DNA of 32,000 bases, from assembly GCF_000300075.1 (NCBI RefSeq), contig NC_018677.1, forward strand, positions 60,001-92,000, written 5' to 3'. This stretch comes from Candidatus Saccharimonadota bacterium. GTDB taxonomy: Bacteria; Pseudomonadota; Gammaproteobacteria; Johnevansiales; Johnevansiaceae. Positions within the stretch are counted from its first letter, which is position 1. The number at the start of each line of letters is the position of its first letter. Under the pieces are notes generated by a model. The model worked only from the letters and a program-made list of their open reading frames with translations, was not told the origin of the DNA and ran no database searches. The position numbers and the translations under genes were made by a program. This document shows positions 1 through 16,406 of this stretch, piece after piece.

Positions 1-1147
1 TATTTTTAAACAAAACATCAATTATATATTATTAGTTTAATATATTTTTTTTTGAATTTGATTTGGATTACATAAAGATTTTAACTTGAATAATATCTAC
101 TAAACTTAAAACTTACTAAACAACAAGTTTTTTATAGACACAACTATTCAAACACTCCATATCTGTTCTATCTTTTCTATTTTTCACATCTAATTTATTT
201 TTACACAGGAAAATAATAGGCATTTATACTTGTGTACATGTGTTTTTTTTTATCGGTATCGTTAATACGTAATATATGTTTTTAGATATACGTTTAAAAT
301 AAGTATTTTATATTTTCTTCAAATAACTAATACTAAATATTTTGTTTTTATACAATTAATGTTTTTTTACAAACATATTAATACCTTTTTGTTCAATTTA
401 TCATTACAAATTCTATTAAATAACAACAAAACCTTATTTTACTTGTATACCGTATGACATATATATTTTTCAAACTATACAATACAAAATACAACTCTTA
501 TAGTTAGTTAAGTATTAAACAAACAAGTTTAAGCATTTATAATTTTAACAACAAAATTAACTTAACCAATAAATTTAAAAGAAACAACTACTATAAACAA
601 ACACATTAATCTACTATTTAAACATTACATCCACTACTAACAATTTAACCCTTAACCCTTTTCTACATCTACATTCATTAAACCTACAGCATATTTTACA
701 TAGTATATACAACCTTCTATATATTAGTAAACTTTACAAGTCTATACAAAAAAGAATAGTTACTATACAGCATACAACTTTAAGCAATAAACAACATACA
801 GCAGAACCCAATAAATCCATTAACCATACTAATAAAAAAACTGTAATACAAAAGCTAAACAAAAATATCATCTAAAACCATAATAACAAACAAAAAAAAA
901 TACAACACATAACATAGAAAAAGTAGAAAAAAAAAACAACAAAATAGCATATAGACAAAAAAAAAGAACAGTAAACAGCAAAGAAAAAGAGAAAAATTAT
1001 ACAATACAGAAAAAGATGGTTATATAGTAAAGAAAAAACCATAAAAACACAGAAAGCTAACCATCAAAACTAAACAAAAGACTACGTAGATAAATAGAAA
1101 TATATATAAAAAGTATAAAAAAAATAAGAATATAAGTAAAATTAGAT
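1..1147. other. Long non-coding block, A/C-rich and G-poor on the + strand (strongest about 420-960), with a purine/A-rich tail about 960-1140
   Basis: No ORF of 60 aa or more on either strand in the supplied track. Hand count of 541-780 gives C=49, G=8 in 240 nt. Low-complexity motifs recur (catctaaa, aaacaac, aaccctt x2 at 647-660). Confidence 0.8.
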
Positions 1148-1950
1148 ATGGGGACCACAGCATCAGGAAAAAAAGTTAGCTATAACTTTAAAAGAATATA
1201 AAATTGTGAGTTAATTAGTGTAGATTCAGCTATGGTTAATAGAAAGATGGATATCGGAACAGCAAAACAAAAATATAGATATCATGAATTAATATATATA
1301 AAAATAATAATGAAAAATATTTAGATTTGGATTTTCGTAAAGAAGCAATAAAAACAATTAGTAAGTTAGGAAAGATTCATATTTTAGTTTGTGGTACAAT
1401 GTTTAATTTAAAAACTTTATTAGAAGGAATAGCAACAATAACTTTTTACAATATTAAATTAAGCAATAAGTATTGTTTATTATTTAATAATAAATTATTT
1501 CATAAAACTGTATTAAAATTATATAATAAAGACATTTATCGAATAAAACGATTATTAGAAGTATATTTAAATACTGATTAATTAATATTGGAAAAACAAT
1601 AATAAAAATTTAAATGAAATGTAATAAAAATTATTATTAAACACAATAACAAGGAAAACTTATATAAAACCGTGTTAATACGTTTAAATATTATTTTTGA
1701 AAAAGCTTTCATCACACAAGTATAAATGTTAACGTTTATGAAAAATATGTATTTAGAATTACCTGAAAATCGAAGTATAGGTTATCGGAAAATTGGTGAC
1801 TTTGTTGATGAAAAATATAATTATTTTATTTTAAAAGATAAGATTTAATCAGCTAATAGAAACTTAGCAAAAAAAAAATTATGGTTACAAAAATATAAAG
1901 ATGCTTTTTTGTTAGATGCTTATAAACATAAAAATAGAAATAGAGATTAG
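1148..1950 (+). pseudogene. miaA: tRNA dimethylallyltransferase (MiaA) pseudogene
   Basis: Translated pieces align colinearly with MiaA. MGTTASGKK (degenerate P-loop GPTASGKT) at 1148, ELISVDSAMVNRKMDIGTAKQ at 1208-1270, LDFRKEAIKTISKLGKIHILVCGTMFNLKTLLEGI at 1327-1431 (this is the 84-aa track ORF), RIKRLLEVY, RSIGYRKIGDFVD at 1771-1809, NLAKKKLWLQKY about 1860-1895. Broken by in-frame stops at 1199-1201, 1322-1324, 1579-1581 and 1846-1848, plus a frame change near 1320. Confidence 0.8.
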
Positions 1951-2022
1951 GTTGTATAATTAGTTGAAATAAATATTACAGAAGAATGGAAAAAAAAATA
2001 TATTATATAGTATTATAAATGT

Positions 2023-3198
2023 ATGAAAAATTATGAAAAAAATTTATTACCTGATGGTATAAAGGAAATATTACCCCCACAATCTATAAATATAGAGAAT
2101 TTAAGAAAAAAATTATTAAATTTATATTATAAATATGGTTATAACTTAATTATACCTCCCCATATAGAGTTTTTAGAAACATTATTGAATGTTGTAGGAT
2201 ATGATTTAGAACTACAAACAGTTAAGTTAATTGATATGTTAAGTGGTAAATTAATTGGTTTAAGTGCAGATTCAACACCTCAAATTGCTAGGATAGATTC
2301 TAATGTATTAAAAAACAAAGGACCGTACAGGGTGTGTTATTGCACAAATGTGTTTCGTGCTTTTCTTGATGAAGATCAGAATGATTTAGAAAGAACGCCT
2401 ATACAAGTAGGAATAGAATTGCTAGGATATAAAGGTTTAGAAGCAGATATTGAAATAATAATTCTTACTATAAAAAGTTTAATAGTATCTGGCGCAAAAC
2501 ATATAAATTTATCAGTTGGACATATTGGCATATATAAAGTATTAGTAAAAAAATCTAAAATAAAAAAAAAATATTTAAAACAGTTGTTTGAAGCCATAGA
2601 CAATAAATCATATACTGATGTAGATCTTTTAATAGATAAAATAAACGTTGATTTTAAAGTAAGGAAAATATTTAAACTGCTACCTAAATTACATGGTGAT
2701 TTTAAGATTATACAAAAAGCATATAAAACAATATCGTATATTAAAGAAATAAAAGTACTGTTAGATGAATTAAAAGAAATCTATAAGCTTATAAATAAAA
2801 AAGTAAAAAATATCTCTATATATTTTGATTTATCAGATTTAAAAGGTTATCAATATCATAATGGTTTTATATTTACAGCTTATGTGTCTGGTGTCGTAAA
2901 ACCATTAGCAAAAGGAGGTAGATATGATATTGGTCAAAAATATGGAAAGCAAAGCCCAGCCACAGGGTGTACTTTTGATTTAAATTTACTTATATCCTTA
3001 CATGAGAAACAAGAAAATATAAAAGAAGGAATATTAGCACCTTTTTTAGAAGATAAAAAATTAGAAAAAAAAATAAATGAGTTAAGATTTTATGGAGAAC
3101 AAGTTATACACGAATTACCAGGAGTTTGTACGAAGGAAAATAATTGTAACAGAAAGTTATGTTTAATAAAAAAAGAATGGCAAATAAGATGTTTATAA
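2023..3198 (+). CDS. hisZ: ATP phosphoribosyltransferase regulatory subunit (HisS paralogue)
   Basis: 391-aa intact ORF. LPDGIKEILPPQS...YGYNLIIPPHIEFLETLL...LSADSTPQIARID...GGRYD matches the class-II aaRS-like HisZ core without an anticodon-binding domain. Lies at the ancestral position between the hflC side and purA. Confidence 0.8.
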   Translation: MKNYEKNLLPDGIKEILPPQSINIENLRKKLLNLYYKYGYNLIIPPHIEFLETLLNVVGYDLELQTVKLIDMLSGKLIGLSADSTPQIARIDSNVLKNKGPYRVCYCTNVFRAFLDEDQNDLERTPIQVGIELLGYKGLEADIEIIILTIKSLIVSGAKHINLSVGHIGIYKVLVKKSKIKKKYLKQLFEAIDNKSYTDVDLLIDKINVDFKVRKIFKLLPKLHGDFKIIQKAYKTISYIKEIKVLLDELKEIYKLINKKVKNISIYFDLSDLKGYQYHNGFIFTAYVSGVVKPLAKGGRYDIGQKYGKQSPATGCTFDLNLLISLHEKQENIKEGILAPFLEDKKLEKKINELRFYGEQVIHELPGVCTKENNCNRKLCLIKKEWQIRCL

Positions 3199-3865
3199 AC
3201 AAAATAAAGATTATGTTGAGACAAGAATATAGTTTTAAATACTATTAATACAATTTGTGATGAATGTAAAGCAAAAGTAGTAGATTATGTAACTTATTTA
3301 TCCATAAATACAGTCGTTCGATAAAATTGTGGTCATACACTAGTTAGAAAAATAAAATTAATACCATAAGTTAGTTTAAGATCGAAGGAAATTTGTATAA
3401 TAAGCAAAGGAGTCGTTAGTTCATAAAATAATTTGTTGAAGTAAATAGACATTATAAAACTTAATAAAAGATTTATTATTTCATAATAATGTTTAAAAAA
3501 AATTGACTAACATGTACTGTTAGATATAGCAATAGAAATTTATTTAAATCAACAAAAATCGGCACTACTAAGTGTGTAATTTTCCCAGTATACGAAGACA
3601 TACTAGCTATAAGATTTATTAAAATTAGTGATATCTTATTTAAGGAACAGTTTTATTTTAAAGATACAATAAGTTAAATTTTTAGTTTTGTATTGAAAAT
3701 TCTTTTATAAATAAACAATTTACATTAAAATCAAGTCTTTGAGCACACAATTGTTTTACTAAAAAGTTTACGTAAGTTCTTTTAAAAAAAATATAATAAA
3801 TGTTAAAAAAAAATTTTTTGTCAAAGGTATTTTGTTAGGAGCACAATTTAAAAATTAGATATAGA

Positions 3866-3955
3866 CTTATCCCTATGTTACGAGCTCAACTACTATTTAT
3901 TTGTGGTCTTATCCCTATGTTACGAGCTCAACCACTATTTATTTGTGGTCTTATC
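3866..3955 (+). repeat. 42-bp tandem repeat, 2.1 copies, one mismatch
   Basis: cttatccctatgttacgagctcaac[t/c]actatttatttgtggt at 3866-3907 and 3908-3949, then a partial third copy cttatc at 3950-3955. Lies inside the purA pseudogene. Confidence 0.95.
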
Positions 3956-4200
3956 AATTGTACTTGTGGTTTTTATAACTTAACAATACAACTAATTGTC
4001 TTTAAAAAAAGAAAATAGGTATATATTTATTTATTAAAGCAAACGAACAAGGTAAAAACACTGGTATTTAAAAGAAGCTGTTTATTGTTTAGTAAGTAAA
4101 GTTTGTTATATATTAATAATAATAAAATATATGCTTAAGTAAGTTATAGGTTTTAGAACTTAAAAAAAAGATTAAAGCATATGTCTTGATTTAAAAAATT

Positions 4201-4252
4201 AGTATAAATACAACAGTCTTAAAAACAGTATAAATACAACAGTCTTAAAAAC
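4201..4252 (+). repeat. 26-bp perfect tandem repeat, 2 copies
   Basis: agtataaatacaacagtcttaaaaac at 4201-4226 and 4227-4252, identical. Lies inside the purA pseudogene. Confidence 0.95.
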
Positions 4253-4435
4253 GTGAAAGGTTTGAGGCAACCCAATAACGGTACTGTGAATTAGCTTAGA
4301 AAACATTACCAAAATAATCAAAAGTTAATATTAGGTTTCTATAGAAAAAACAAAATATTTAACTCGTGATTAGATCGCCATGATAAAATATTAAGGATAC
4401 TATCATATTAAAATTTACTTTAAGAGAAACAATAG

Positions 4436-5860
4436 GTGAGAAATACAGATAAAACTTTAGTAAAATTGTTTGATAAAAAAGACTATAAATATGGTTTTAA
4501 AATAAACATCGCTAGTAACGTACAGTTACCAGGTTTAAATAAAAAAATAATACGTAATTTATCGAAACAGAAAAAAGAACCAAAATGGATGTTAAAATGG
4601 CGATTAGAAGCTTATTTAAAATGGTTAAAGATGAAACCACCCTTTTGGGCTATATTTAAAACACCAGAAATAAATTATAAAGAAATGTCTTTTTATAGCT
4701 CGCCCCAAAAAAAATATTTAGATAAAAAGTTATTACATGTTTACAAAAAATTAGGTGTGAATTTGTATGATAAAAAAAAACAAACAATAGCTATAGATGC
4801 GGTTTTAGATTCAGTGTCAATCGCAACTACATATAAAAAAAAATTATATAAATTAGGAATTATTTTTTGCTCTATTTCAGAAGCAATAATGAAATATTGT
4901 GATCTAATACAACTATACTTAGGGTCAGTTGTACCGAATGATGATAATTATTTTGCTTCATTAAATTCTGCAGTATTTACAGATGGATCTTTTGTGTTTT
5001 TACCAGAAGGAAAAAAAAGCCCTATAGAATTATCAACTTATTTTCGTTTGAACTCTGAAAAATTAGGACAATTTGAAAGAACTTTAATAATATGTGAGAA
5101 AAGAGCAGAAGTTTCTTATTTAGAAGGTTGCACAGCAACTATATACGATTCGAATCAATTGCATGCTGCTGTCGTTGAATTAATAGCTTTTGAAGAGAGT
5201 TATATAAAATATTCTACAGTACAAAATTGGTATCCAGGTAATAAATTTGGCAAAGGAGGCATTTATAATTTTGTAACCAAACGTGGTTTATGTAAAGGAA
5301 TAAAATCAAAAATCAGTTGGATTCAATTAGAAACAGGCTCAGCAATAACATGGAAATATCCTTCGTGTATCCTGTTAGGTGATTTTTCGAAAGGTGAATT
5401 TTATTCAATGGCCATAACAAATAATAAACAAAAAGCTGATACGGGAACTAAAATGATTCATATAGGGAGCAATACAAAATCTACAATAATTGCTAAGGGT
5501 GTTGCTATTGGTAAGTCTAAACAAGCTTATAGAGGTTTAGTTAAAATTAGCAAACACGCCAGTAACTCAAGCAATTTTACTCAATGTGATTCATTAATAA
5601 TAGGCAAAACAAGTACTATTTACACAATACCTTATCAAGCTATAAAGAACGATACGGCAATAGTAGAACATGAAGCTACTGCATATAAAATAAATAAAGA
5701 AAAAATGTTTTATTTAATGCAACGTGGTATAAATAAAGAAAATACTATAAATATGATAGTAAATGGCTTTTGTAAAGATATTTTTCAAAAATTGCCAATG
5801 GAGTTTGCAGTTGAAGCGTCTGCTTTGTTAGAAATTACATTAGAAGGGTCGTTAGGTTAA
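4436..5860 (+). CDS. sufB: Fe-S cluster assembly scaffold protein SufB
   Basis: 474 aa with a GTG start. MRNTDK... parallels E. coli MSRNTE. Full-length similarity includes KEPKWMLKWRLEAY, FERTLII, YLEGCTA, QLHAAVVELI, YSTVQNWYPG, SAITWKYPSCIL, ADTGTKMIHIG, NGFCKDIF. Confidence 0.97.
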   Translation: MRNTDKTLVKLFDKKDYKYGFKINIASNVQLPGLNKKIIRNLSKQKKEPKWMLKWRLEAYLKWLKMKPPFWAIFKTPEINYKEMSFYSSPQKKYLDKKLLHVYKKLGVNLYDKKKQTIAIDAVLDSVSIATTYKKKLYKLGIIFCSISEAIMKYCDLIQLYLGSVVPNDDNYFASLNSAVFTDGSFVFLPEGKKSPIELSTYFRLNSEKLGQFERTLIICEKRAEVSYLEGCTATIYDSNQLHAAVVELIAFEESYIKYSTVQNWYPGNKFGKGGIYNFVTKRGLCKGIKSKISWIQLETGSAITWKYPSCILLGDFSKGEFYSMAITNNKQKADTGTKMIHIGSNTKSTIIAKGVAIGKSKQAYRGLVKISKHASNSSNFTQCDSLIIGKTSTIYTIPYQAIKNDTAIVEHEATAYKINKEKMFYLMQRGINKENTINMIVNGFCKDIFQKLPMEFAVEASALLEITLEGSLG

Positions 5861-7791
5861 ACTTTTTTATGCTTTAGTGTTTACTTGTTTTATTTTATGC
5901 GTTATCTGTTATCTTTTTTGTTGCTTTTTTACTCTTTTTGTTATGTTGTTTAGCTTATATCTGTTTAATGTCATTTAAAACATTTGTGTTATGTTTGTTT
6001 AATGTTGTGTAAGTGGTTTAGCTGATAAATGTTGTTTATAATAAAGAAATTATGCGTTTAGTATTGAATTTATTTTTGGTAAATTGTTTTGCTTGAATGC
6101 TAATGTATAAAAAAAAAGATGTTGTAGTAAATTTATAGTTAATTAGTTAGTAAGGATTAAAATGTTAAGCAGTTAGGTTTGTTATTGGTTTTGTGTTTGC
6201 TTAATGTTAAAGCAGTTAGGTTTGTTTTTGCTGTTTATGTTAAAGAAGGTATGAAAGTTGTATCGTTTAGAAAATAGATAAACTAAAAGCTTGGTGTTAA
6301 ATTACTTATTTTATGTTAAAGGTTAAGTTTTGGATAAAACTGTTGTGTGTGATAGGTAAACTAAAAGCTTTTATGAAAATATATTATGCTTAAAGAATAG
6401 GTTGTTGCTTGTTTGTTTAAGGGTAGGTGTAGAAACAGTAAAGGTGTTGTATTTTGTATAAAAATAGAAAAGAGTAAAAGTATAAAGGGGTAAAGGTTAG
6501 TGGAGTGGTTAAATGTTAAGTAGTTAGATTGTAGGTCTTTAGGTTTGTTTATTTTTGCTTAAGGTTTGTTTGTTTTGTGAGTGGTGTTAGTGGTTAAATT
6601 AAAGGCTAAATAGTTGGTGGTTTTTTTTTTGCTTGAGATATAGGTTTGTTGGTGTATGGTATGGTTTGTAGTAAAATATAAAGGTTTTGTGATTTGTTTA
6701 TGGCTTTGTATTAAATGTTTTTGCTTAATCTTATATTTTTTTAAATTCTGTATTTATGGTTGTTGTTTTTTATAACTTAAAAAGTTAAACTCAGTTCTCT
6801 TTTTATACCAATGTGTATATAATGTTTTAAGGCTTAATGCTATAGGTTTTAGGTCGTTATGTAGTTGTGGTTTTATTTTTTGTTGACTTTTTTCTTTTTC
6901 TTTATGTTTAGTTTTTTTTATGCTTATTTAAATTCCATTTTTTTCGTTGTATTATTTTACATATAAGTGTATTTGTATCTACGTATTGTATTATAAACTA
7001 TAAAGGTTGTTGTATAAATATATAGTAAAAAAAAAGAAAGAAATGAAAGTAGGTAGATGTTGTATAGCTAAAAAAAAAGATGGTGTTAATAGTTTGTGTT
7101 CGTAAAAGGTTTGTGTTAAGAGGTGTTAGAAGTAGGGTTTGTGTTAATAAAATGTGAGTTTGTATTTAGCTGTATGTGTAAAGTGTGTAAGCTGTAAAAA
7201 TTGTGGATTACGTATTGTAATTTGTAAGCAGCTGTATGCATGGTGTAGTGTGTTTATGGTATATAGTCGGTTCTGTGGATATGGGTTGTAAATTAAAATA
7301 TTGTTGTTTTTTTTTATAGAAAACAAAAGAGCTAATAAGAAATTGATTGTTTTGTATTAACAAAAGAGCTAATAAGAAATTGATTGTTTTATATATATTG
7401 GTGTAGTGTGTGTAAAAAATATTATGTAGAAGTGGTAAGTTAGTTTTGAAAGTTTTGTTATGTATTGTGGTTGGTGTGTTATGTTCAACATATTGTAAAT
7501 AGGTGAGTTATTATATCAGTTGTATTCATATGAAAAAAGTATGGTGTAAAAGTATTAAGTTTATTGACTAATTTATATATTGTATAATTAAAACTAAAAA
7601 GTTTATGGTTAAATTAAAAGCTAGTAGCTCTAAGTTCTTAGTTTAAGGTTTATATTATAAATGCTGTAGGGTAATAGGTTTAAAGTAAACGTTTTAAAAA
7701 TGATGTTGTTAGTAAATTATGTTTGTAAAATAAATATGCTGTATGGTTAGAAAGAAAAGTAATGTAAGTAAATATTAATGGTTATATTAAA
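5861..7791. other. 1.9-kb non-coding G/T-rich, C-depleted block separating sufB from sufC
   Basis: Only one 60-aa minus-strand ORF in the track. Hand count of 6421-6660 gives G=71, C=5 in 240 nt. Made of degenerate dispersed and tandem short repeats (aatgttaa(a)gcagttaggtttgtt, taaactaaaagctt, ggttaaattaaa(g/a)gcta, tgcttaa). Confidence 0.85.
7322..7390 (+). repeat. 32-bp perfect direct repeat with 37-bp period
   Basis: aacaaaagagctaataagaaattgattgtttt at 7322-7353 and 7359-7390, separated by gtatt. Confidence 0.95.
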
Positions 7792-8529
7792 ATGTTAAAA
7801 ATAGAGAATTTAAAGGTTAATATAAAAAAAAATAATATATTACAAAGTATTAACATAAAGATAAAAACAGGTGAATTACATGTAATAATGGGGCCAAATG
7901 GGTCAGGGAAATCAAGTTTAGTATCAACATTGGTTGGAAAAGAAAATTATACAATAAAGAACGGGAAATTGTTTTTTAATGGTATTAATATTTCAGAGCT
8001 AAACATAGAAGAAAGATCTAAAGTTGGAATGTTGTTGAGCTTTCAAAATCCCATTTCTATAGCAGGCGTTAAAAATATATATTTTTTACATACAGCTTTA
8101 AATGAAAAATTAACGTATTTACAAAACGAAACAATAACTGTTTTACAAGTAATAAAAAAAATAAAACAAAAAATGAAATATTTAAAAATAGAAAAAAAAC
8201 TTTTAAATAGAGATGTAAATGAAGCATTTTCAGGTGGGGAGAGAAAAAAAAATGAACTTTTACAAATGTTATTGTTAAAACCAAAAGTCGCTTTACTTGA
8301 TGAAATAGATTCAGGATTAGATATAGATTCAATGAAAGTTGTATCAAATGGAATAAATTTGATTAAATCTAAGAAATGTTCGATTGTTTTAATTACTCAT
8401 TATAAACGTATATTAAATTATATAGAGCCTAATTTTATACATATTTTAGTTGATGGAAAGATTATAAAATCGGGTGATAAAACTTTAGTAAATGAAATAG
8501 ACCTCTTTGGTTATAAAAATTATGTGTGA
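7792..8529 (+). CDS. sufC: Fe-S cluster assembly ATPase SufC
   Basis: 245 aa. Walker A GPNGSGKSS, signature FSGGERKKNE, Walker B LLDEIDSGLDID, THY. Colinear with E. coli SufC. TGA stop. Confidence 0.97.
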   Translation: MLKIENLKVNIKKNNILQSINIKIKTGELHVIMGPNGSGKSSLVSTLVGKENYTIKNGKLFFNGINISELNIEERSKVGMLLSFQNPISIAGVKNIYFLHTALNEKLTYLQNETITVLQVIKKIKQKMKYLKIEKKLLNRDVNEAFSGGERKKNELLQMLLLKPKVALLDEIDSGLDIDSMKVVSNGINLIKSKKCSIVLITHYKRILNYIEPNFIHILVDGKIIKSGDKTLVNEIDLFGYKNYV

Positions 8530-9544
8530 TTTATTAAATATTGATGCTTATATGATTGTATTTATAGATGGTAAACTGTCAAAAAAATACTCAAATGTAA
8601 TTAACTCATGTGAAGTAAATATAATTTATTTAAAAAATAATCTTATGAATAAAGAAACTGATAAAATAAAAAAAAAATATTACACTTATAGTGGTTTAAT
8701 ACTTAATTTAAAATCAAATATAAAAATAAAAAAACCAATTTATATGTTACATATTTCAAAACAAAAAATATATAAACAAATTAATTTAAAAATATTAGTT
8801 TTGGTTGAGAAAAAGCTAAAAATACAAATTTTAGAGCATTATATAAATAAAAGTAGCAACAAACATATAAATAATATAAAAATGGAAATGAATATTAGTG
8901 ACGAGGCAAAGATTACATGGTTTCATTTAGTTGCTTTAAATACAATAGATTATTGTTTATCAAATATTGTTGTAAATCTAAGTAAATATAGTAATTGTGA
9001 GTTTTATAATATAAAGATATATAGCTATTTTTTGTATTATAACTTAGAAATTAATTTAAAAGATGAATATAGTAAATGTGATGTGGTAGGGTTGTTTTCT
9101 CCGAAAGATAAAAATTTTATAAGAAATAACATAATTATTAATCATATAACGAGTTTTACAAAATCTAATGTAAATTATAAAGGTTTAATAAGTTCGACAG
9201 GACTTTTACATTGTTATATCAACATAAAAAAAAATATAAAAAATATATATGGCATTCAAAAATCTTCAAATATATTATTGTCTAATAAGGCTACGATTAA
9301 AACAAATCCGAAATTAAAAATAAAATCAAAAGATGTGGTCTGTACACATAAAACTATTGTTGGTAAAATAAATGAAGATTATATTTTTTATTTGAGAACA
9401 AGAGGATTAACAAAACCGTTAGCTAAATCATTAATATTATTAAGTTTCATTAATGACTTTTTAACTAAAATTGAAATAAAAGCGTTTAAACGATATTTAG
9501 GTTGTACAAAAATAATAAAGTTAAAAGATGCTTATAGACAATAA
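8522..9544 (+). CDS. sufD: Fe-S cluster assembly protein SufD, N-terminally short and highly diverged
   Basis: Position between sufC and sufS. C-terminal similarity KPKLKIKSKDVVCTHKTIVGKINEDYIFYLRTRGL to SufD ([35 protein letters not shown]). The track ORF starts at TTG 8507. The in-frame ATG at 8522 gives an ATGTGTGA overlap with the sufC stop and is preferred. Confidence 0.85.
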   Translation: MCDLLNIDAYMIVFIDGKLSKKYSNVINSCEVNIIYLKNNLMNKETDKIKKKYYTYSGLILNLKSNIKIKKPIYMLHISKQKIYKQINLKILVLVEKKLKIQILEHYINKSSNKHINNIKMEMNISDEAKITWFHLVALNTIDYCLSNIVVNLSKYSNCEFYNIKIYSYFLYYNLEINLKDEYSKCDVVGLFSPKDKNFIRNNIIINHITSFTKSNVNYKGLISSTGLLHCYINIKKNIKNIYGIQKSSNILLSNKATIKTNPKLKIKSKDVVCTHKTIVGKINEDYIFYLRTRGLTKPLAKSLILLSFINDFLTKIEIKAFKRYLGCTKIIKLKDAYRQ

Positions 9545-9546
9545 AA

Positions 9547-10785
9547 ATGTTAATAAATTATATAAAACTAAAAAACAAAATTCTTAAAATAAGAGAAGAG
9601 TTTCCTATATTAAAAAATTGTATACACAAACTATATGAGTTAATTTTTTTTGATAATGCAGCGACAAGTCAAATGCCAAACAATGTAATTAACATAATGA
9701 ATGAATATAATAACTATTATAATGCTAATATACATAGAGGAATAACTTATTTATCAAAGGAAGTTACAATAGCATATGAACGCACAAGAAAAATGGTTTG
9801 TAAAAGTATAAATGCAAAATATAAAGAAGAAATTATATTTACAAAAGGAACTACAGAATCTATTAATATAATATCAAATAGTTATGGTAATTTATTAGAC
9901 AAAGGAAGTGAAATTGTAATTTCTATGATGGAACATCATTCAAATATCCTACCTTGGAAAATTTTATCAATAAATAAAGGATTTAAATTAAAAATAATCC
10001 CAGTAACAGAAACTGGGTTAATAGATATAAAAAGATTTCACAACTTATTGACACATCAAACGAAATTAGTAGTTATAACACATGTTTCTAATGTATTAGG
10101 TACAACAAACAAACTTAACATATTATCAAAAATAGTTCATAAAAAACAAGCTTTAATATTAATAGATGGAGCGCAAGCTATTTCCCATAAAAAGATTGAT
10201 GTACAAAAAATAAAGATAGATTTTTATGTTTTTTCTGCCCATAAAACTTATGGTCCAACTGGAGTTGGTATACTATATGTACGGTTAGACATCTTAAACA
10301 AGATGGATCCTTGGCAATATGGTGGAGACATGGTAAAGTATTTTAGTTTTTTTAAAGAACAAATTATATATTCAGAATTACCTTACAAATTTGAAGCCGG
10401 TACACAAACAATATGTAATATTATAGCTTATTATTCGTCTTTAAAGTGGTTAACAAAAAATTTAAAGTTGATTAAAACTTGGGAAAAACTTTTAGTATAT
10501 TTTATCATTAAAGATTTTCAACAAATAAAAACAATTCATATTATAGGAAGAAGTAAAAAAGTTTCAGTGGTATCTTTTCTTATTGAAGGTATTAATTCAC
10601 ATGATATAGGGTTAGTATTGGATAAATATGGAATTGCTATTAGAACGGGCCATCATTGTGGCCAACCCATATTAACTAATTATGGAATAAATACAGTTTG
10701 TAGAGTCTCATTTGCCTTATATAATAATTTAGAAGAAATAAACACGTTTATAAGAACATTAAAAACACTAATAAAAATATTTTAA
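9547..10785 (+). CDS. sufS: Cysteine desulfurase SufS (class V aminotransferase)
   Basis: 412 aa. FFDNAATSQ, HHSNILPW, FSAHKTYGPTGVGILY (PLP lysine), RTGHHCGQP (active-site Cys loop). Confidence 0.96.
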   Translation: MLINYIKLKNKILKIREEFPILKNCIHKLYELIFFDNAATSQMPNNVINIMNEYNNYYNANIHRGITYLSKEVTIAYERTRKMVCKSINAKYKEEIIFTKGTTESINIISNSYGNLLDKGSEIVISMMEHHSNILPWKILSINKGFKLKIIPVTETGLIDIKRFHNLLTHQTKLVVITHVSNVLGTTNKLNILSKIVHKKQALILIDGAQAISHKKIDVQKIKIDFYVFSAHKTYGPTGVGILYVRLDILNKMDPWQYGGDMVKYFSFFKEQIIYSELPYKFEAGTQTICNIIAYYSSLKWLTKNLKLIKTWEKLLVYFIIKDFQQIKTIHIIGRSKKVSVVSFLIEGINSHDIGLVLDKYGIAIRTGHHCGQPILTNYGINTVCRVSFALYNNLEEINTFIRTLKTLIKIF

Positions 10786-10786
10786 C

Positions 10787-11851
10787 TTAGGTTCTATTAT
10801 AAGTGCTAGAAATAATAGCGCCACCGAAACAAATATTATTGTGATATAAAACAATTGTTTGTCCTTCAGTTATGCCTTTTTGTTTATATAAAAAAGAAAC
10901 TTTTATGTAATTTATAAAGTTATAAACGATACACTGTTGATCTATTTGTCTATATCGTATTTTAGCATATAAAGTAATTTTATTAATTGTTTTATCAAAC
11001 GGATTTTTAAGCCAAATTACATTATTTGCAATTAAAGAATTAGTATATAAAATTTTATTTTTGGTCTTAGCGACAGATAGAATATTTTTATGTATTTTTT
11101 TTTTTATAACATACCAAACAGTTTTATTAAAAGTTTTGGTGATATTAAATCCATTAGTTTGTCCATTTGTATAAAAGAAAAGGCCTTTATGTTGTCCGAT
11201 AATAAGGTTATTTTTTGTTACGATGTTACCAAAGTTAAACGGAAAAAACTTGTTTAAAAAAGATGTAAAGTTGTGATTTCCTACAAAACAAATACCAAAA
11301 GATTCTTGTTTAAAATTTAATTTATAAAAAAGAAAGTTTGCAAGTTTACGTATTTCAAATTTATTATAAAATCCTATAGGAAAAAGAAGTTTGTGAATAT
11401 AATATTTATTTATATTATAAAGGTAATAACTTTGATCTTTATTTAAATCAAGACTTTTAAAAAACAACTTATTTGTTAATCTAATATAATGGCCAGTTGA
11501 CATATAATCAGCGTTTAATACATTAAACGCATATTTTGTTAATAAATTAAACTTTATTTCTTTATTACATAAAGAATCTGGATTTGGGGTTTTACCATAA
11601 ATAAATTCTTGAAGAAAAGTTTTAAAAACATTACTCCAATATTCAGATGTAAAATTTACAATATGTAAAACTATTTTTAATCTATTACATATATATTTAA
11701 CATCAGAAACTTCGTTTTGTAGTTTACACTGACTGTTTAACTCCCAATTTTTCATAAATAACCCTTCAACCTTATATCCTTTTTGTAACAGTAAAAACGC
11801 ACATAAAGAAGAATCTATTCCTCCAGACATACATACAATAATTTTTTTCAT
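10787..11851 (-). CDS. mnmA: tRNA-specific 2-thiouridylase MnmA
   Basis: 354 aa. PP-loop MSGGIDSS at the N-terminus, then GLFMKNW, TPNPDSLCNKEIKF, STGHY, KDQSYYL. Confidence 0.95.
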   Translation of the reverse strand: MKKIIVCMSGGIDSSLCAFLLLQKGYKVEGLFMKNWELNSQCKLQNEVSDVKYICNRLKIVLHIVNFTSEYWSNVFKTFLQEFIYGKTPNPDSLCNKEIKFNLLTKYAFNVLNADYMSTGHYIRLTNKLFFKSLDLNKDQSYYLYNINKYYIHKLLFPIGFYNKFEIRKLANFLFYKLNFKQESFGICFVGNHNFTSFLNKFFPFNFGNIVTKNNLIIGQHKGLFFYTNGQTNGFNITKTFNKTVWYVIKKKIHKNILSVAKTKNKILYTNSLIANNVIWLKNPFDKTINKITLYAKIRYRQIDQQCIVYNFINYIKVSFLYKQKGITEGQTIVLYHNNICFGGAIISSTYNRT

Positions 11852-11857
11852 AATAAC

Positions 11858-12076
11858 TTACCGCGAACGATATATTATACGACCTTTTGTAAGATCATAA
11901 TGTGTTATTTCAACTTTTACTTTATCTCCTGTTAAAATTTTTATATAATTTTTTCTAATTTTACCAGATATATGTGCTGTTATAACATGCCCATTGTCTA
12001 ATTTAACTCTAAACATGGTGTTTGGTAATGTGTCTATAATTCTTCCTTCCATTTCTATTGTGTCTTTTTTTTTCAT
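11858..12076 (-). CDS. infA: Translation initiation factor IF-1
   Basis: 72 aa. [63 protein letters not shown] is near-canonical IF-1. Confidence 0.98.
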
Positions 12077-12104
12077 ATCTTCTTACTTCCTTACATATTT
12101 TTTA

Positions 12105-12133
12105 TTGACATTTTTTACCTTTGATTTAATAAT
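12105..12133 (+). promoter_or_regulatory. Candidate sigma70 promoter for the tRNA-Glu/tRNA-Gly (and possibly yadGH) transcript
   Basis: Perfect TTGACA at 12105-12110, a 17-nt spacer, then AATAAT at 12128-12133 (5/6 to TATAAT), about 14 nt upstream of the mature tRNA-Glu 5' end. AT-rich background makes -10-like hexamers common. Confidence 0.3.
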
Positions 12134-12146
12134 ATTATCTTATTCT

Positions 12147-12218
12147 GTCCCTTTCGTCTAGTGGTTAAGACACTGCTCTTTCACGGCAGTAACATGAGTT
12201 CAATTCTCATAGGGGACA
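12147..12218 (+). tRNA. tRNA-Glu (anticodon UUC)
   Basis: Cloverleaf folded by hand. Acceptor GTCCCTT/AGGGGAC, anticodon stem CTGCT/GGCAG, loop CTTTCAC. Close to E. coli tRNA-Glu. No encoded CCA. Confidence 0.92.
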
Positions 12219-12233
12219 AAAGAAAGAAGAAAG

Positions 12234-12307
12234 GCGGAAATAGCTCAGTTGGTAAGAGTGTCACCTTGCCAAGGTGAAGGTCGCGAGTTCGAGTCTCGTT
12301 TTCCGCT
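12234..12307 (+). tRNA. tRNA-Gly (anticodon GCC)
   Basis: GCGGAAATAGCTCAGTTGGTAAGAG...CCTTGCCAAGG...GTCGCGAGTTCGAGTCTCGTTTTCCGCT is nearly identical in architecture to E. coli tRNA-Gly(GCC). No encoded CCA. Confidence 0.93.
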
Positions 12308-12318
12308 AAGAAGGAAGT

Positions 12319-13257
12319 ATGAAAAAATTAGCATTAAATATAAAAAAATTAACAAAAATTTATAAAAAAAAGAATTATGCGTTAAAAAATATAAATTTAG
12401 AGGTTAGAAAAGGAGATTTTTTTGCAATATTGGGACAAAATGGAGCAGGAAAATCAACAACAATAGGAATAATAAGCTCTTTAATAAAAAAGACTTGTGG
12501 AAAAATAAAAATTTTTGACACAGATATAGATAAAGAAAATTCAAAAGCTAAATGTAATTTAGGTTATGTATCGCAAGAATACAATTTAAATCAATTTGAA
12601 AAGGTTGAAAATATTCTTTTTACACAAGCAGGATTGTATGGCATCTCAAAGAAGTTTTCTAAAGTACGTATTTATAAATTGTTACAAGATTTAAGTTTAT
12701 TTAAACAACGAGAAATAATAGTTAAAAAGTTATCAGGTGGAATGAAAAGAAGATTAATGATTGCGCGTTCTTTAGTACATAATCCAAACTTGTTGATTTT
12801 AGATGAACCAACAGCAGGGTTAGATATTGAATTAAGAAAAAATATATGGGATTATATGTACAATATAAATAAAAAAGAAAAGAAAACTATTATTTTAACA
12901 ACACACTATTTAGAAGAAGCTGAAAGATTGTGTAGAAATGTTGCAATTATAAAGAAAGGTAGAATTATAAAAAATACAAGTATGCAATCGTTATTAAGTA
13001 AAATAGATAGAAATACATTTTTATTAGAAACAAAACATCCTTTAAAAAAAATTCCTTACATTACAGGAGTAAAATTACAAAAAAAAGATTCTTATAACTT
13101 TATAATTTCATTAAAAAAAGGAACAAAATTAAATGAGATTTTTAATATATTTGATAAAGCTAACATAGAGATTGTGGCTATGCGGAATACTTCTAATAGA
13201 TTAGAAGAAAGGTTTTTAAATATAATTGAAAAAGCTAACATAGAGTATAAGATTTGA
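12319..13257 (+). CDS. yadG: ABC-2 type transporter, ATP-binding subunit (YadG-like)
   Basis: 312 aa. Walker A GQNGAGKST, signature LSGGMKRR, Walker B LLILDEPTAGLD, THYLEEAE. SD-like aaggaag upstream. 4-bp overlap with the partner permease. Confidence 0.88.
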   Translation: MKKLALNIKKLTKIYKKKNYALKNINLEVRKGDFFAILGQNGAGKSTTIGIISSLIKKTCGKIKIFDTDIDKENSKAKCNLGYVSQEYNLNQFEKVENILFTQAGLYGISKKFSKVRIYKLLQDLSLFKQREIIVKKLSGGMKRRLMIARSLVHNPNLLILDEPTAGLDIELRKNIWDYMYNINKKEKKTIILTTHYLEEAERLCRNVAIIKKGRIIKNTSMQSLLSKIDRNTFLLETKHPLKKIPYITGVKLQKKDSYNFIISLKKGTKLNEIFNIFDKANIEIVAMRNTSNRLEERFLNIIEKANIEYKI

Positions 13258-14015
13258 AACAAAAAAGAACTATTATAGCACTTAGTACATTAATTAAACG
13301 AGAAGTTGGTAGATTTTTACGAATTTGGCCACAAACTCTATTACCATCGTCAATTACTACTACCATGTATTTTTTTATTTTTGGTAAATTAATAGGTTGT
13401 AAATTAGGTAATATGGATGGTTTAAGTTATATAACTTATATATTTCCAGGTTTAATAATGATGGCGGTAATAACAAATAGTTATTCAAATGTAGCGTCTT
13501 CTTTGTTTGGTAATAAATTTCAACGTTCTATAGAAGAGTTACTCATATCTCCTATGCCTAGTTTTTTGCTAGTAGACGGTTTTATTTTAGGGGGGTTGTT
13601 TAGAGGTTTATTAGTAGGTTTAATTGTTACTTTTGTAGCTTTACTTTTTACAAAAATAAATATTGTACATCCTTTTTTAACAATAGTAATAGTGATTTTA
13701 ACATCTATATTATTTTCATTAGCAGGTTTTATTAATGCATTAGTAGCGAAAAAATTTGATGATATCTCAATTATCCCGAGTTTTGTTTTAACGCCTTTAA
13801 CTTATCTTGGGGGTGTTTTTTATAATATAAATTTACTACCAGAGTTTTGGAAAAATTTGTCATTAATCAATCCAATAGTTTATATTGTGAATACTTTTAG
13901 ATATGGGATTTTAGGTGGCTCAGATCTTGTTATAGGAAAATCATTAATTGCAATAATTATATTTATATTATTTTTTTATATAGTTTCATTACGTTTATTA
14001 AAAAAAGGTATATAG
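13254..14015 (+). CDS. yadH: ABC-2 type transporter permease (YadH-like)
   Basis: 253 aa with a TTG start overlapping the yadG stop. REVGRFLRIWPQTLLPSSITTTMYFFIFG...FPGLIMMAVITNSYSNVASSLFGNKFQRSIEELL...FVLTPLTYLGGVFY...LNPIVYIVNTFRYG aligns along its full length with E. coli YadH. Confidence 0.88.
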   Translation: MKQKRTIIALSTLIKREVGRFLRIWPQTLLPSSITTTMYFFIFGKLIGCKLGNMDGLSYITYIFPGLIMMAVITNSYSNVASSLFGNKFQRSIEELLISPMPSFLLVDGFILGGLFRGLLVGLIVTFVALLFTKINIVHPFLTIVIVILTSILFSLAGFINALVAKKFDDISIIPSFVLTPLTYLGGVFYNINLLPEFWKNLSLINPIVYIVNTFRYGILGGSDLVIGKSLIAIIIFILFFYIVSLRLLKKGI

Positions 14016-14029
14016 TTAGTCTGAATATT

Positions 14030-14113
14030 GGAGAGGTGTCCGAGTGGACTAAGGAGCACATTTGGAAAGTGTGTAAGTTTTAGACTTCAAGGGTTCGAAT
14101 CCCTTTCTCTCCG
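14030..14113 (+). tRNA. tRNA-Ser (anticodon GGA), long variable arm
   Basis: GGAGAGGTGTCCGAGTGG...CACAT TTGGAAA GTGTG...GGGTTCGAATCCCTTTCTCTCCG. Type-II tRNA that matches the E. coli tRNA-Ser(GGA) layout. No encoded CCA. Confidence 0.9.
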
Positions 14114-14156
14114 TTAAATCAAAGAACATAAAGATCATTAGGAGAATAAAATAAAT

Positions 14157-15095
14157 ATGCAAATAGGTATTATTGGTTTAGGTAAAATGGGAGGTAATAT
14201 TTCTAAAAAATTTTTAAAAAATAAATATACTTGTTATGTTTTTGATAAAAATAGAAAGAATATAAAACACATAGAAAAAAGGGGAGCACTAGGCGTAAAC
14301 TCTTTAAAATGCTTGGTTTTAAGTTTATCGAACCCTAGAACAATTTTGTTAATGTTGCCAGCAGGGAAAATAACGGAAAAAATCATTTTAAAAATCACAA
14401 AATATATGGAAAAAGGAGATACGATTTTAGATGGGAGTAATGGGTATTTTAAAAAAGATATCAAAAGATCTGAACAATTATTTATAAGAGGAATTAATTA
14501 TCTAGATGTAGGTGTTTCAGGGGGAATATGGGGTTTAAAACGAGGTTATTGTATGATGATCGGAGGAAATAAAAAGATTTTTGAAAAAAAAACGACTATA
14601 TTTTTTAGTTTATCTTCAGACAATTCAAAATGTTATATGTATTGTGGTAAAGTTGGTTCAGGGCATTTTGTTAAAATGATACATAACGGTATAGAGTATG
14701 GAATGATGCAATCTTATGCCGAAGGTTTTGATATAATTCATAATATAAACAACAAACATGTACTTTATAAACATCGTTATAACTTAAATATATATGATAT
14801 TTCTGAAATATGGCGTAGAGGAAGTGTAATTGAGTCTTGGTTGTTAGATTTGATTTCTATTTCTTTAGCGCACGATGTCACTCTCAATGATTTTAGTGGT
14901 AAAGTGAATGATTCAGGTGAAGTGCGATGGCTTGTACAAACAGCTTTAGAAGAATCAATGCCCTTAGACGTTTTAACTACCTCTTTATATGTTCGTTTTA
15001 AATCGAGGTATAATAATAGATATGGTGATAAATTGCTATCAGCTATGCGCAAACAGTTTGGTGGCCATATAGAACTTTTATATCCTTCTTCCTAA
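14157..15095 (+). CDS. gnd: 6-phosphogluconate dehydrogenase (decarboxylating), short YqeC/Gnd-like form
   Basis: 312 aa. Rossmann IGIIGLGKMGGN at the N-terminus, GSGHFVKMIHNGIEYGMMQSYAEGF signature, RRGSVIESWLLDL, and C-terminal RKQFGGH. Confidence 0.8.
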   Translation: MQIGIIGLGKMGGNISKKFLKNKYTCYVFDKNRKNIKHIEKRGALGVNSLKCLVLSLSNPRTILLMLPAGKITEKIILKITKYMEKGDTILDGSNGYFKKDIKRSEQLFIRGINYLDVGVSGGIWGLKRGYCMMIGGNKKIFEKKTTIFFSLSSDNSKCYMYCGKVGSGHFVKMIHNGIEYGMMQSYAEGFDIIHNINNKHVLYKHRYNLNIYDISEIWRRGSVIESWLLDLISISLAHDVTLNDFSGKVNDSGEVRWLVQTALEESMPLDVLTTSLYVRFKSRYNNRYGDKLLSAMRKQFGGHIELLYPSS

Positions 15096-15152
15096 TTACT
15101 TCTTTTTTTTTTACTTGTTGTTTTCTTTTTTCTTTATAGTCTTTTTTATACC

Positions 15153-15193
15153 AACATCAAACATCAAACATCAAACATCACCTATCACCTATC
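15153..15193 (+). repeat. Heptamer microsatellite (aacatca)x4 followed by (cctatca)x2
   Basis: aacatca at 15153, 15160, 15167 and 15174, then cctatca at 15181 and cctatc at 15188. Confidence 0.95.
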
Positions 15194-15410
15194 TAACATC
15201 TATAACTTCTTACTAACAACCAAATATCAACTTCTTACTACCAACATCTAACAACAAAATGGCTAACTAACTAACTAAAACATATAAACACCAACTACTA
15301 AACTATAACCATATAAATACAATAATATAACATATAAACACAACAAACTAAATAACGAAACACAAAAATATAACAGAAGACAAGATACTAAACTTCAAAA
15401 TTATAACTAG

Positions 15411-15445
15411 AAACAACAAACAACAAACAACAAACATCAAACATC
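15411..15445 (+). repeat. Heptamer microsatellite (aaacaac)x3 followed by (aaacatc)x2
   Basis: Five consecutive 7-mers read directly from the sequence. Same motif family as 15153-15180. Confidence 0.95.
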
Positions 15446-16164
15446 TACCTACAAACTACTTAAATACACACATATAACTACAAACTAATAACTTATAAAC
15501 ATATTATATAAAAAATAAATAATAATAACATATATATGTATAAAATATAAAAAACTATATATAAATACAAACTTTTAAAAGCAACAAATAACATCTAAAT
15601 AAAAACAAACTAACAACTCTAACCTCTAACATTCTTTATTCATACATATAACATCTAATAACTAACATAACTTTAATATTACATATTAGTAATTAATATA
15701 ACCGAAACCAATAAAACAACACCAGCAAATATATAAATTCTAAATAACATAGAACAATATAACGAAATAACAATATACCATATATAAACAACATATATGG
15801 AAAGATAAAGGCAGATAAAAAAAAAGAAAGCAAACATATGATATCTAATAACATCATCTAAATAACATTAAACATATAACTTAGAAGAAAAGAAACATCT
15901 AACAGCAAAAATTACACTAAACATATAACATAAATAAAAAAGCTATAAAAAGGGAAAGATAATTAAGAACAACACATCTAAACACTAAATATTAAATATA
16001 ACAGGTAATAAAAAACAAAAAATTATAAATGCTAACAGCTATAAACATAAAAACTTAAGAATTAAGAAAAATAAAACTGCAAAAAACAAAGAATCAGATG
16101 AGCAATACTGCAAAACTACACTATATAAGTAAATAACACAGAACAAAGCATGCCACATAAACAG

Positions 16165-16235
16165 GCGAACATAGTTTAAGGGTAAAACATTAGCCTTCCA
16201 AGTTAATGATACGGGTTCGATTCCCGTTGTTCGCT
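16165..16235 (+). tRNA. tRNA-Gly (anticodon UCC), glyT-like
   Basis: GCGAACATAGTTTAAGGGTAAAACATTAGCCTTCCAAGTTAATGATACGGGTTCGATTCCCGTTGTTCGCT parallels E. coli glyT. Anticodon loop CTTCCAA. Confidence 0.9.
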
Positions 16236-16242
16236 AATAATC

Positions 16243-16315
16243 GCTCATGTAGCTCAGTTGGTAGAGCACACCTTTAGTAAAGGTGAGGTCAACGGTTCAA
16301 TTCTGTTCATGAGCT
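16243..16315 (+). tRNA. tRNA-Thr, thrT-like body with anticodon AGU (A at wobble position 34)
   Basis: GCTCATGTAGCTCAGTTGGTAGAGCA CACCT TTAGTAA AGGTG AGGTC AACGG TTCAATT CTGTT CATGAGC T. Aligns position-for-position with E. coli thrT (CACCC TTGGTAA GGGTG), so the anticodon is AGT at 16276-16278. Confidence 0.85.
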
Positions 16316-16333
16316 CAAGCAGTTATAGTTGTA

Positions 16334-16406
16334 AGGTCAGTAGCTCAATTGGTAGAGTAGCGGTCTCCAAAATCGAAGGGTGGGGGTTCAATTCCCTCCT
16401 GGCCTG
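16334..16406 (+). tRNA. tRNA-Trp (anticodon CCA)
   Basis: AGGTCAGTAGCTCAATTGGTAGAGTAGCGGTCTCCAAAATCG...GGGGGTTCAATTCCCTCCTGGCCTG. Loop CTCCAAA. Canonical position just upstream of secE. Confidence 0.92.

Follow-up and report, generated by a model that had tools for sequence, protein, structure and literature searches.

The window considered here, a stretch of 32,000 nucleotides, belongs to the chromosome of Candidatus Portiera aleyrodidarum of Bemisia tabaci (record CP016304.1), and contains three blocks of non-coding DNA, located between ilvD and a miaA remnant (block 1), between sufB and sufC (block 2), and between gnd and a tRNA-Gly gene (block 3). Each of these blocks is nearly three-letter DNA, one base being all but missing from a given strand. 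The blocks are the expanded, microsatellite-rich spacers already described in Portiera by Sloan and Moran (2013, PMC3673631). They probably represent lineage-specific expanded intergenic regions of dnaQ-less Portiera, which would have grown in place by slippage, inherited their polarity, and then decayed slowly. Our account of the blocks concerns positions 1-16,164 of the window and the neighbouring genes, and draws on a sample of about 70 kb of this 352-kb genome (hereafter the B. tabaci strain) plus fragments of three relatives. The genomes used for comparison were those of a compact Trialeurodes strain, a sister lineage (L090/L101), and a Singhiella strain (L102, CACTJB010000001.1).

With regard to the identity of the genome, SufC (7792-8529) is identical on five chromosome-scale Portiera records of 351-359 kb, namely, four NCBI genomes and one JGI contig, and the sources of the protein databases label this identical SufC as Candidatus Portiera aleyrodidarum. 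The exact SufC, EF-Tu, and miaA-remnant products were placed on CP016304.1 and sibling records, and the spacer lengths in the window are exactly those of CP016304.1. The records CP016327 and CP016343 are Portiera of B. tabaci Asia II 3 and China 1, respectively (PMC6699477).

The initial annotation of this DNA had described three unrecognisable, strongly strand-asymmetric blocks whose polarity alternates along the window (C>>G, G>>C, C>>G), and base counts bear out both statements. The core of block 1 (420-960) contains 98 C and 26 G (GC skew -0.58, AT skew +0.30), a departure of 6.5 binomial standard deviations from C=G. Over 420-1147 and this core, the GC skew ranges from -0.41 to -0.58 and the AT skew from +0.30 to +0.37, while the C>G tract of block 1 starts where ilvD ends, 343 bp ahead of the window, and extends to about position 1000. 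Block 2, with 397 G and 87 C, is skewed in the opposite direction (GC skew +0.64, AT skew -0.19; 14 binomial standard deviations), and block 3, with 185 C and 52 G, has the polarity of block 1 (GC skew -0.56, AT skew +0.36; 8.6 binomial standard deviations), with a peak at 15150-15800. The + strand genes of the window, as well as its two pseudogene remnants, those of miaA and purA, display GC skews of +0.10 to +0.43 and mostly positive AT skews, and mnmA, which is encoded on the - strand, has a value of about 0. The + strand of the blocks is rich in A+C (blocks 1 and 3) or in G+T (block 2), an axis distinct from the purine richness of coding strands.

The composition of the miaA remnant is gene-like (GC skew +0.29, AT skew +0.16), and purA is intact in the sister lineage L090. 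Base counts and tblastn confirm that both remnants lack the skew of the blocks and are still recognisable. The earlier division of the non-coding DNA into two classes, pseudogene remnants and repeat-derived blocks, is likewise upheld, since the 7-bp periodicity described below occurs in the blocks only. The flanking genes had been placed on the + strand throughout, which is correct for the genes beside the blocks but not for mnmA and infA (Table 1).

Self-match spectra revealed peaks at 7, 14, and 21 bp in the blocks, and none in the pseudogene remnants or in rpoB; the periodicity is strongest in block 3, at 7, 14, and 21 bp, and is present at 7 and 14 bp in block 2. Block 3 harbours several heptamer arrays (Table 1), and the AAACAAC unit of one of them is also found in the sister lineage, in both orientations. 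A (TTAACCC)n array in block 1 (645-660) varies by 7 bp in length between strains. The length of block 3 ranges from 1068 to 1396 bp over six aligned strains, and is about 1061 bp in a seventh assembly (L088). Among the 24 inter-strain gap events in this block, 8 amount to 7, 14, 21, 42, or 56 bp, and most of these 7n-bp gaps fall in G-free arrays, for instance (AACCTCA)n, (AAACAAC)n, and (AACATCA)n. Such enrichment in 7-bp repeats and such inter-strain 7-bp indels are features of the large intergenic regions reported for Portiera of B. tabaci, where a 7-bp spike among tandem repeats and 7-bp indels were found (PMC3673631). This lineage, in which the window is included, has lost dnaQ (the proofreading subunit of the DNA polymerase), dnaN, dnaX, holA, holB, mutL, ruvC, and ssb (PMC3673631, PMC5322561). 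Tandem duplications of 42 bp and 26 bp were also noticed in the purA remnant (3833-3955 and 4201-4252; Tandem Repeats Finder), indicating that tandem duplication acts on decaying genes too, though here with neither 7-bp units nor a three-letter composition. In the Singhiella strain, the spacer units measure 5 bp and not 7 bp, as in (GTTTT)n, (ATGTT)n, and (TAATG)n (L102 7774-10000 and 2362-6367).

Comparison with the Trialeurodes strain showed that the blocks are absent or tiny at the orthologous junctions. The gene order in that strain is lon, ilvD, orf105, mutL, miaA, hisZ, sufB, sufC, sufD, sufS, mnmA, infA, yadG, yadH, gnd, dnaX, dapA, and aceE. The contiguity of ilvD, orf105, mutL, and miaA places block 1 at the site of the lost mutL gene, and a weak remnant of the small open reading frame orf105/orf118 was detected by tblastn just 5' of the window (L098 8402-8607, corresponding to window positions -272 to -67). 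The arrangement gnd-dnaX-dapA, in which gnd and dnaX overlap, places block 3 at the site of the lost dnaX gene, and this site is also a rearrangement breakpoint. The gap between sufB and sufC is a single bp in the Trialeurodes strain, so that the 1.9 kb of block 2 are a new acquisition of the suf operon. Other spacers of the B. tabaci strain are expanded and skewed as well, among them one inside the spc operon and one between the divergent genes hisS and lon (Table 1).

Blocks 1 and 3 and the rplQ>rplU spacer lie exactly at the sites of mutL, dnaX, and ssb, and the first two are roughly as long as the lost genes, as would be expected if the blocks were ancient pseudogenes of mutL, dnaX, and other lost genes of that kind, decayed beyond recognition. 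Such an origin is nevertheless extremely improbable. No remnant of MutL, DnaX, or SSB was detected in the blocks by tblastn (E<1), while the miaA and purA remnants were readily detected as positive controls. Moreover, block 2 and the rpsH>rplF block emerged where no more than 1 bp and 25 bp, respectively, had separated the genes, the ssb site expanded from 479 to 1593 bp, the blocks carry 7-bp periodicity and 7n-bp indels, and their axis of composition differs from that of decayed genes. Decayed pseudogenes are thus refuted as a sufficient explanation, although the space in which the blocks lie may still come from gene loss.

The blocks of the B. tabaci strain and of L090 at orthologous positions resemble each other at z values of 1-3.7 only, and nothing is alignable between them beyond the 12 nt before sufC. 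L090 possesses an extra block at tRNA-Ser>gnd, with a skew of -0.95. With regard to block 2, the 8-mer GTTAGGTT is confined to position 5851, at the 3' end of sufB, and to positions 6172 and 6215 within the block; these copies, together with the 12 nt before sufC common to the window and L090, hint that block 2 may have grown from a duplicated sufB|sufC junction. A seeding of the block from the 3' end of sufB was, however, not significant across the window, 10 out of 100 shuffles reaching three GTTAGGTT matches.

Between the two strain clades, the blocks have diverged by about 1-2% (1.8-2.0% for block 2), compared with 1.7-2.2% for the purA pseudogene, used as a neutral yardstick, and 0.3% for coding DNA. 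The blocks evolve at the neutral rate and show no sign of sequence constraint. In 17.7 kb aligned over six strains, 14 transitions were counted versus 179 transversions, and a separate alignment of 11 kb to a more distantly related strain yielded 16 transitions versus 105 transversions. In both coding and non-coding DNA, A<>T, G<>T, and A<>C predominate (whole window and L081-L086, L095, L100), and C>T and G>A together represent 2 of the 92 polarised non-coding changes. Because transitions are nearly absent, cytosine deamination is excluded as a source of the skew. The GC content of fourfold-degenerate sites, 15.5%, lies below both the equilibrium implied by the spectrum, about 27%, and the content of the blocks, 22-25%.

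The fate of an array under this spectrum was modelled with a strand-symmetric rate matrix estimated from the observed substitutions. At 0.4-0.8 substitutions per site, a pure G/T heptamer array would reach A 0.14-0.24, C 0.03-0.06, G 0.21-0.25, and T 0.46-0.58, approaching the composition of the block of the sister lineage (A 0.23, C 0.03, G 0.18, T 0.55). In the model, the skew would take about 1 substitution per site to be halved, and the composition of the founder could therefore outlast alignable similarity in the absence of any asymmetric force.

Fourfold-degenerate sites of the flanking genes, which the initial annotation had put forward as a baseline, were analysed with regard to the origin of the sign changes. 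Pooled over the + strand genes, these sites show G>C (+0.29) and A>T (+0.13). Every gene beside any block keeps G>C, and the sole exception, rpsL, with -0.33 on 6 G+C sites, is located far from the blocks. The sign changes of the blocks are not mirrored in the genes, which excludes inversions of whole segments. This uniform skew also excludes a regional bias of replication or transcription, which upholds the view that a replication-direction bias cannot yield the sign flips; the corresponding view on transcription-coupled deamination also stands, transitions being nearly absent.

Strand-asymmetric mutation, whether linked to the replication strand, to transcription-coupled deamination, or to oxidative damage, is accordingly a most unlikely maker of the skew in situ. 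This explanation would fit with the opposition of G+T and A+C, which is the classical leading/lagging axis and which the blocks have in common with replication-associated GC skew (chirochores), with the 2-3-fold gap between C/A and G/T on one strand, and with the polarised counts, which lean as expected (8 A>C versus 2 T>G on the A+C-rich strand). These counts, however, fit strand symmetry, deamination is ruled out by the spectrum, and the pseudogenes adjoining the blocks are unskewed. Two sign changes occur in a co-oriented gene array whose fourfold sites hold one sign in all but one gene, and opposite polarities are encountered at one locus in sister lineages and within single spacers. In contrast with chirochores, the skew of the blocks is 3-5 times larger and its sign flips within a few kb, the neighbouring neutral sites remaining unchanged. 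In-situ mutation pressure is largely refuted by the fourfold-site and cross-lineage data.

The polarity of the blocks is labile. The ilvD>miaA spacer, A+C-rich here, carries an 800-bp G+T-rich block in L090, and the rpsH>rplF spacer, G+T-rich here and in L101, is A+C-rich over 4 kb in the Singhiella strain (skew -0.75). Single spacers, such as rpsA>dapA, can hold both polarities. We infer that polarity is a historical accident and not a read-out of replication or transcription direction. Independent founding events with tandem duplication fit these data, because polarity flips between lineages, blocks appear at new sites, and some spacers are mixed. Further, the 4-kb rpsH>rplF spacer of the Singhiella strain contains just 3% G. 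In der (engA), the two GTPase domains are separated by some 110 residues of low-complexity linker, rich in N, K, T, H, Q, and I (L098 about 200-420, - strand; about 8.3-8.5 kb upstream of the window). The coding strand of this linker is nearly G-free (the + strand has a GC skew of +0.87), and the same three-letter DNA apparently underwent an in-frame expansion inside this gene.

Selection linked to Rho was proposed after the composition of block 2 had been considered. Spacers inside operons would be C-poor on the sense strand and thereby escape termination, while C-rich, G-poor spacers between operons would serve as Rho loading sites. The genes rho, nusA, and nusG are retained (PMC6699477), and the A+C-rich blocks downstream of ilvD and gnd, with a C:G ratio of about 3.5-4 on the sense strand, resemble Rho utilisation regions. 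In the B. tabaci strain and L090/L101, the sense strand of the two intra-operon spacers, sufB>sufC and rpsH>rplF, is rich in G and poor in C, and the gnd>tRNA-Gly, rplQ>rplU, ilvD>miaA, and tRNA-Ser>gnd spacers are C-rich and G-poor. The rule, which holds at the four spacer sites that the B. tabaci strain shares with L090/L101, correctly predicted in advance a G-rich rpsH>rplF and a C-rich rplQ>rplU, here and in the sister lineage. The supporting Bemisia-type sites are, however, probably shared by descent and would then correspond to few independent events. In the Singhiella strain, the 4 kb of rpsH>rplF are C-rich and G-poor in that very operon, and rpsE>rplO is mixed. In the B. tabaci strain, tRNA-Asp>hisI is G-rich though not intra-operonic, rpsA>dapA starts G-rich, and the divergent hisS|lon spacer is equally skewed without such a constraint; the ilvD>miaA spacer of L090 carries a G-rich block. 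Over more spacers and lineages, no consistent relation between polarity and operons is observed, in contrast to what Rho utilisation regions would require, and the rule, rejected on the data from the Singhiella strain, from a second region of the B. tabaci strain, and from L090, is very unlikely to account for the polarity.

The initial annotation had explained the blocks by one family of strand-biased repeats, seeded at several loci in both orientations, the copies of which could act as recombination substrates. All-versus-all comparison of the blocks in both orientations revealed little beyond composition for the three blocks of the window, the k-mers in common giving, against dinucleotide shuffles, z values of about 0 for block 1 versus block 3, about 1 for block 2 versus reverse-complemented block 3, and about 4 for block 1 versus reverse-complemented block 2. 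No exact match of more than 15 bp exists between these blocks, and no dispersed repeat of at least 22 nt joins them. Smith-Waterman alignments between blocks scored z 1-5 over shuffles, and the best of them are gap-ridden, of low complexity, and of low identity. Alignable copies with defined ends, typical of dispersed repeats or mobile elements (insertion sequences, miniature inverted-repeat transposable elements, REP-like sequences), were not found. These results exclude copies of a discrete element for the three blocks, whose resemblance owes much to composition and recurrent short units. The proposed role as recombination substrates finds no obvious homologous substrate among the blocks of the window, the longest exact match being at most 15 bp.

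A wider subset of blocks does share words. Block 3, the dapA-proximal block, and the reverse-complemented rpsA-proximal and rpsH>rplF blocks have 11-mers in common far beyond the level of dinucleotide shuffles (z values of 5-12), in the orientation that matches their composition. The shared words, among them AACCTCTAACAACTAAC and AACATCTAATAACTA, are members of a degenerate heptamer family, AACMWCT, whose 4-5-fold enrichment concerns the forward orientation in some blocks and the reverse one in others. In block 3 and the dapA-proximal block, AACMWCT has an equal orientation relative to gnd and dapA, as if one block had been split, and a single ancestral block at the dnaX site may have given rise to both upon rearrangement. 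In addition, block 2 carries, as AGGTTTG, the reverse-complemented (AACCTCA)n unit that block 3 has in other strains, and all the blocks of L090 share words with z values of 5-10. In the Singhiella strain, inverted repeats of 101 nt (86% complementarity) and 37 nt (97%) join neighbouring sub-blocks of opposite polarity, which indicates that local inversion or inverted duplication can flip polarity. Repeats have also been linked to structural variants in Portiera (PMC3673631). A heptamer unit family is therefore present in some blocks, in both orientations, as had been proposed, but the idea of an alignable dispersed element does not hold for the three blocks of the window. The occurrence of AAACAAC at non-orthologous loci of different species (longest common substring of 26) argues for recurrent emergence and not for spread, and new blocks start at new sites from local sequence. 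One seeded family whose copies recombine is thus a doubtful, if tenable, explanation of the blocks.

A bolder proposal would make the satellite the engine of the rearrangements, with blocks of one family in opposite orientation serving as substrates of the at least 17 inversions reported for this lineage, a single ancestral block that replaced dnaX being split in this way into block 3 and the dapA-proximal block, and the three-letter composition representing the signature of a polymerase devoid of clamp, clamp loader, and proofreader. We consider this rather improbable.

The explanation that we favour, growth in place followed by slow decay, can be decomposed as follows. A block or sub-block would grow clonally through rounds of slippage or tandem duplication that act on short units, mostly of 7 bp in the B. 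tabaci strain, which happen to hold three bases per strand (A, C, and T, or the complement). Later duplications would copy the composition of the founder and generate a kilobase-scale block with one polarity. The orientation of the founding array would fix this polarity, which a local inversion or inverted duplication could reset. After expansion, the arrays would decay by neutral point substitution, almost purely through transversions (A<>T, G<>T, A<>C), such that the missing base would return slowly and the skew would outlast recognisable similarity. Blocks would form where DNA may grow, that is, at the sites of deleted genes (mutL, dnaX, ssb), at rearrangement junctions, and at some tight operon junctions (sufB|sufC, rpsH|rplF).

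Several points weigh against this account. The consistent use of three-letter units and their 7-bp length lie outside what the model explains. Block 2 departs from the model in that its A content is higher, and its AT skew lower, than its GC skew would lead one to expect. The values of C/A and G/T on one strand, about 0.35-0.45 versus 0.15-0.20, differ 2-3 fold, and since strict symmetry predicts that they converge, some mutational strand asymmetry or continuing re-expansion may be at work. The polarised changes on the A+C-rich strand (8 A>C versus 2 T>G) form a small sample that is compatible with symmetry, as do further polarised counts from the blocks (6 versus 2). Finally, a genome-wide pattern of polarity may be missed in about 70 kb of one 352-kb genome and fragments of three relatives.

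The blocks correspond to the expanded regions of Portiera (Aleurolobini) reported previously (PMC3673631; Santos-Garcia et al. 2015, 2020, PMC5322561, PMC7821994), in the same genome and at the same loci, and share with them the absence from the Trialeurodes strain, the 7-bp spike and indels, the association with the loss of dnaQ and further genes of replication and repair, and the link to structural instability. Local compositional skew is not treated in these papers, the word "skew" being absent from PMC3673631 and PMC7821994, and PMC5322561 reporting the loss of the genome-wide GC-skew pattern in B. tabaci strains and nothing further on skew. Likewise, the word "transversion" is absent from PMC3673631. 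As far as the papers searched show, three details of this known phenomenon appear to have gone undescribed: the near absence of a fourth base, the polarity of each block, and the predominance of transversions in the spectrum. Eukaryotic satellites and minisatellites, such as telomere-like G-rich/C-rich repeats, also consist of slippage-amplified short units in which one base is nearly absent per strand. The likeness extends to degenerating, fast-turnover arrays whose lengths vary between close relatives. The blocks differ from such satellites in that they are located on the chromosome of a bacterial endosymbiont and are made of AT-rich heptamers, and nothing points to an enzyme devoted to their synthesis or to a structural function.

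With regard to the gene content of the window, gene names were checked with NCBIfam, and tRNA genes with ARAGORN and Rfam (Table 1); the Rfam scan of the window matched five of the six ARAGORN tRNA genes and nothing else. Downstream of hisZ, the order is purA remnant, sufB, block 2, sufCDS, mnmA/infA (- strand), two tRNA genes, yadGH, tRNA-Ser, gnd, and block 3, followed by tRNA-Gly, tRNA-Thr, tRNA-Trp, secE, nusG, rplKAJL, rpoBC, rpsLG, fusA, and tuf. The tRNA-Thr gene (16243-16316) has, according to ARAGORN, the anticodon AGT, with A at position 34, while its L090 orthologue has GGT. Such an A34 is unusual in bacterial tRNAs apart from tRNA-Arg. NusG comprises 185 residues here (16787-17344) and in most strains, and 196 in two Logan assemblies (Table 1); this 11-residue length polymorphism agrees with the one reported in bioRxiv 10.1101/110353. 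A genome scan with SufB gave, among the matches listed, proteins of Ignavibacteria, Bacteroidota, and Bdellovibrionota type with 56-60% identity, and neither Portiera nor Halomonadaceae, which is probably an artefact of peptide patterns. In L101 (4605-5151), two adjacent rpsQ (S17) frames of 90 and 85 residues suggest a tandem duplication inside the S10/spc operon. Lastly, no rpmJ (L36) gene was called in the 218-bp gap that separates secY from rpsM in the B. tabaci strain (L100 11644-11861); the Trialeurodes strain, L101, and the Singhiella strain all have the gene.

Table 1. Blocks, heptamer arrays, genes, and remnants of the window, followed by expanded spacers and a NusG variant considered for comparison. 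Positions are those of the window unless a record is given.
Feature	Position	Strand	Description
Proximal ilvD>miaA spacer	1-419	.	AT-rich, C>G, T>A (base counts)
Block 1	420-1147	.	A+C-rich, G-poor repeat-derived spacer, ilvD>miaA
miaA pseudogene remnant	1148-1989	+	tblastn with Trialeurodes-strain MiaA, E 1e-32 to 1e-34, broken frames
hisZ	2023-3198	+	NCBIfam NF008935, E 1e-111
purA pseudogene remnant	3223-4431	+	tblastn with L090 PurA, E 3e-23
sufB	4436-5860	+	NCBIfam NF008773, E 2e-222
Block 2	5861-7791	.	1.9-kb G+T-rich, C-poor spacer within suf operon, sufB>sufC
sufC, sufD, sufS	7792-10785	+	NCBIfam
mnmA	10787-11851	-	infA also on - strand; neither adjoins a block
gnd	14157-15095	+	Short-type 6-phosphogluconate dehydrogenase; NCBIfam NF007161, E 1e-120
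Block 3	15096-16163	.	A+C-rich, G-poor heptamer-satellite spacer, gnd>tRNA-Gly
(AACATCA)x4 and (ATCACCT)x2.4	15153-15193	+	Perfect heptamer arrays in block 3; Tandem Repeats Finder
(AAACAAC)x4.7	15411-15443	+	Heptamer array in block 3; 7-bp copy-number difference between strains
tRNA-Gly(TCC), tRNA-Thr(AGT), tRNA-Trp(CCA) cluster	16164-16406	+	ARAGORN, Rfam; bounds block 3
sufB|sufC junction			Trialeurodes strain 1 bp; B. tabaci strain 1931 bp (block 2); L090 1652 bp, equal polarity
rpsH>rplF			Inside spc operon; B. tabaci strain 607 bp, G+T-rich; Trialeurodes strain 25 bp
rplQ>rplU			B. tabaci strain 1593 bp, A+C-rich; Trialeurodes strain 479 bp including ssb
hisS|lon			Divergent genes; 1.9 kb, A+C-rich on + strand
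rpsA>dapA			3 kb; 2 kb G+T-rich, then 0.8 kb A+C-rich
tRNA-Val>tRNA-Asp			About 1 kb, A+C-rich
tRNA-Asp>hisI			1.6 kb, G+T-rich
196-residue NusG	L081 19158-19748; L087 10325-10915		

Portiera of B. tabaci is the textbook exception to the frozen, compact genomes of ancient insect endosymbionts, and the blocks give a concrete picture of a chromosome after the loss of proofreading, clamp, clamp loader, MutL, and, in the Bemisia lineages, SSB. In such genomes, local GC skew is poor evidence for replication direction or for inversions.

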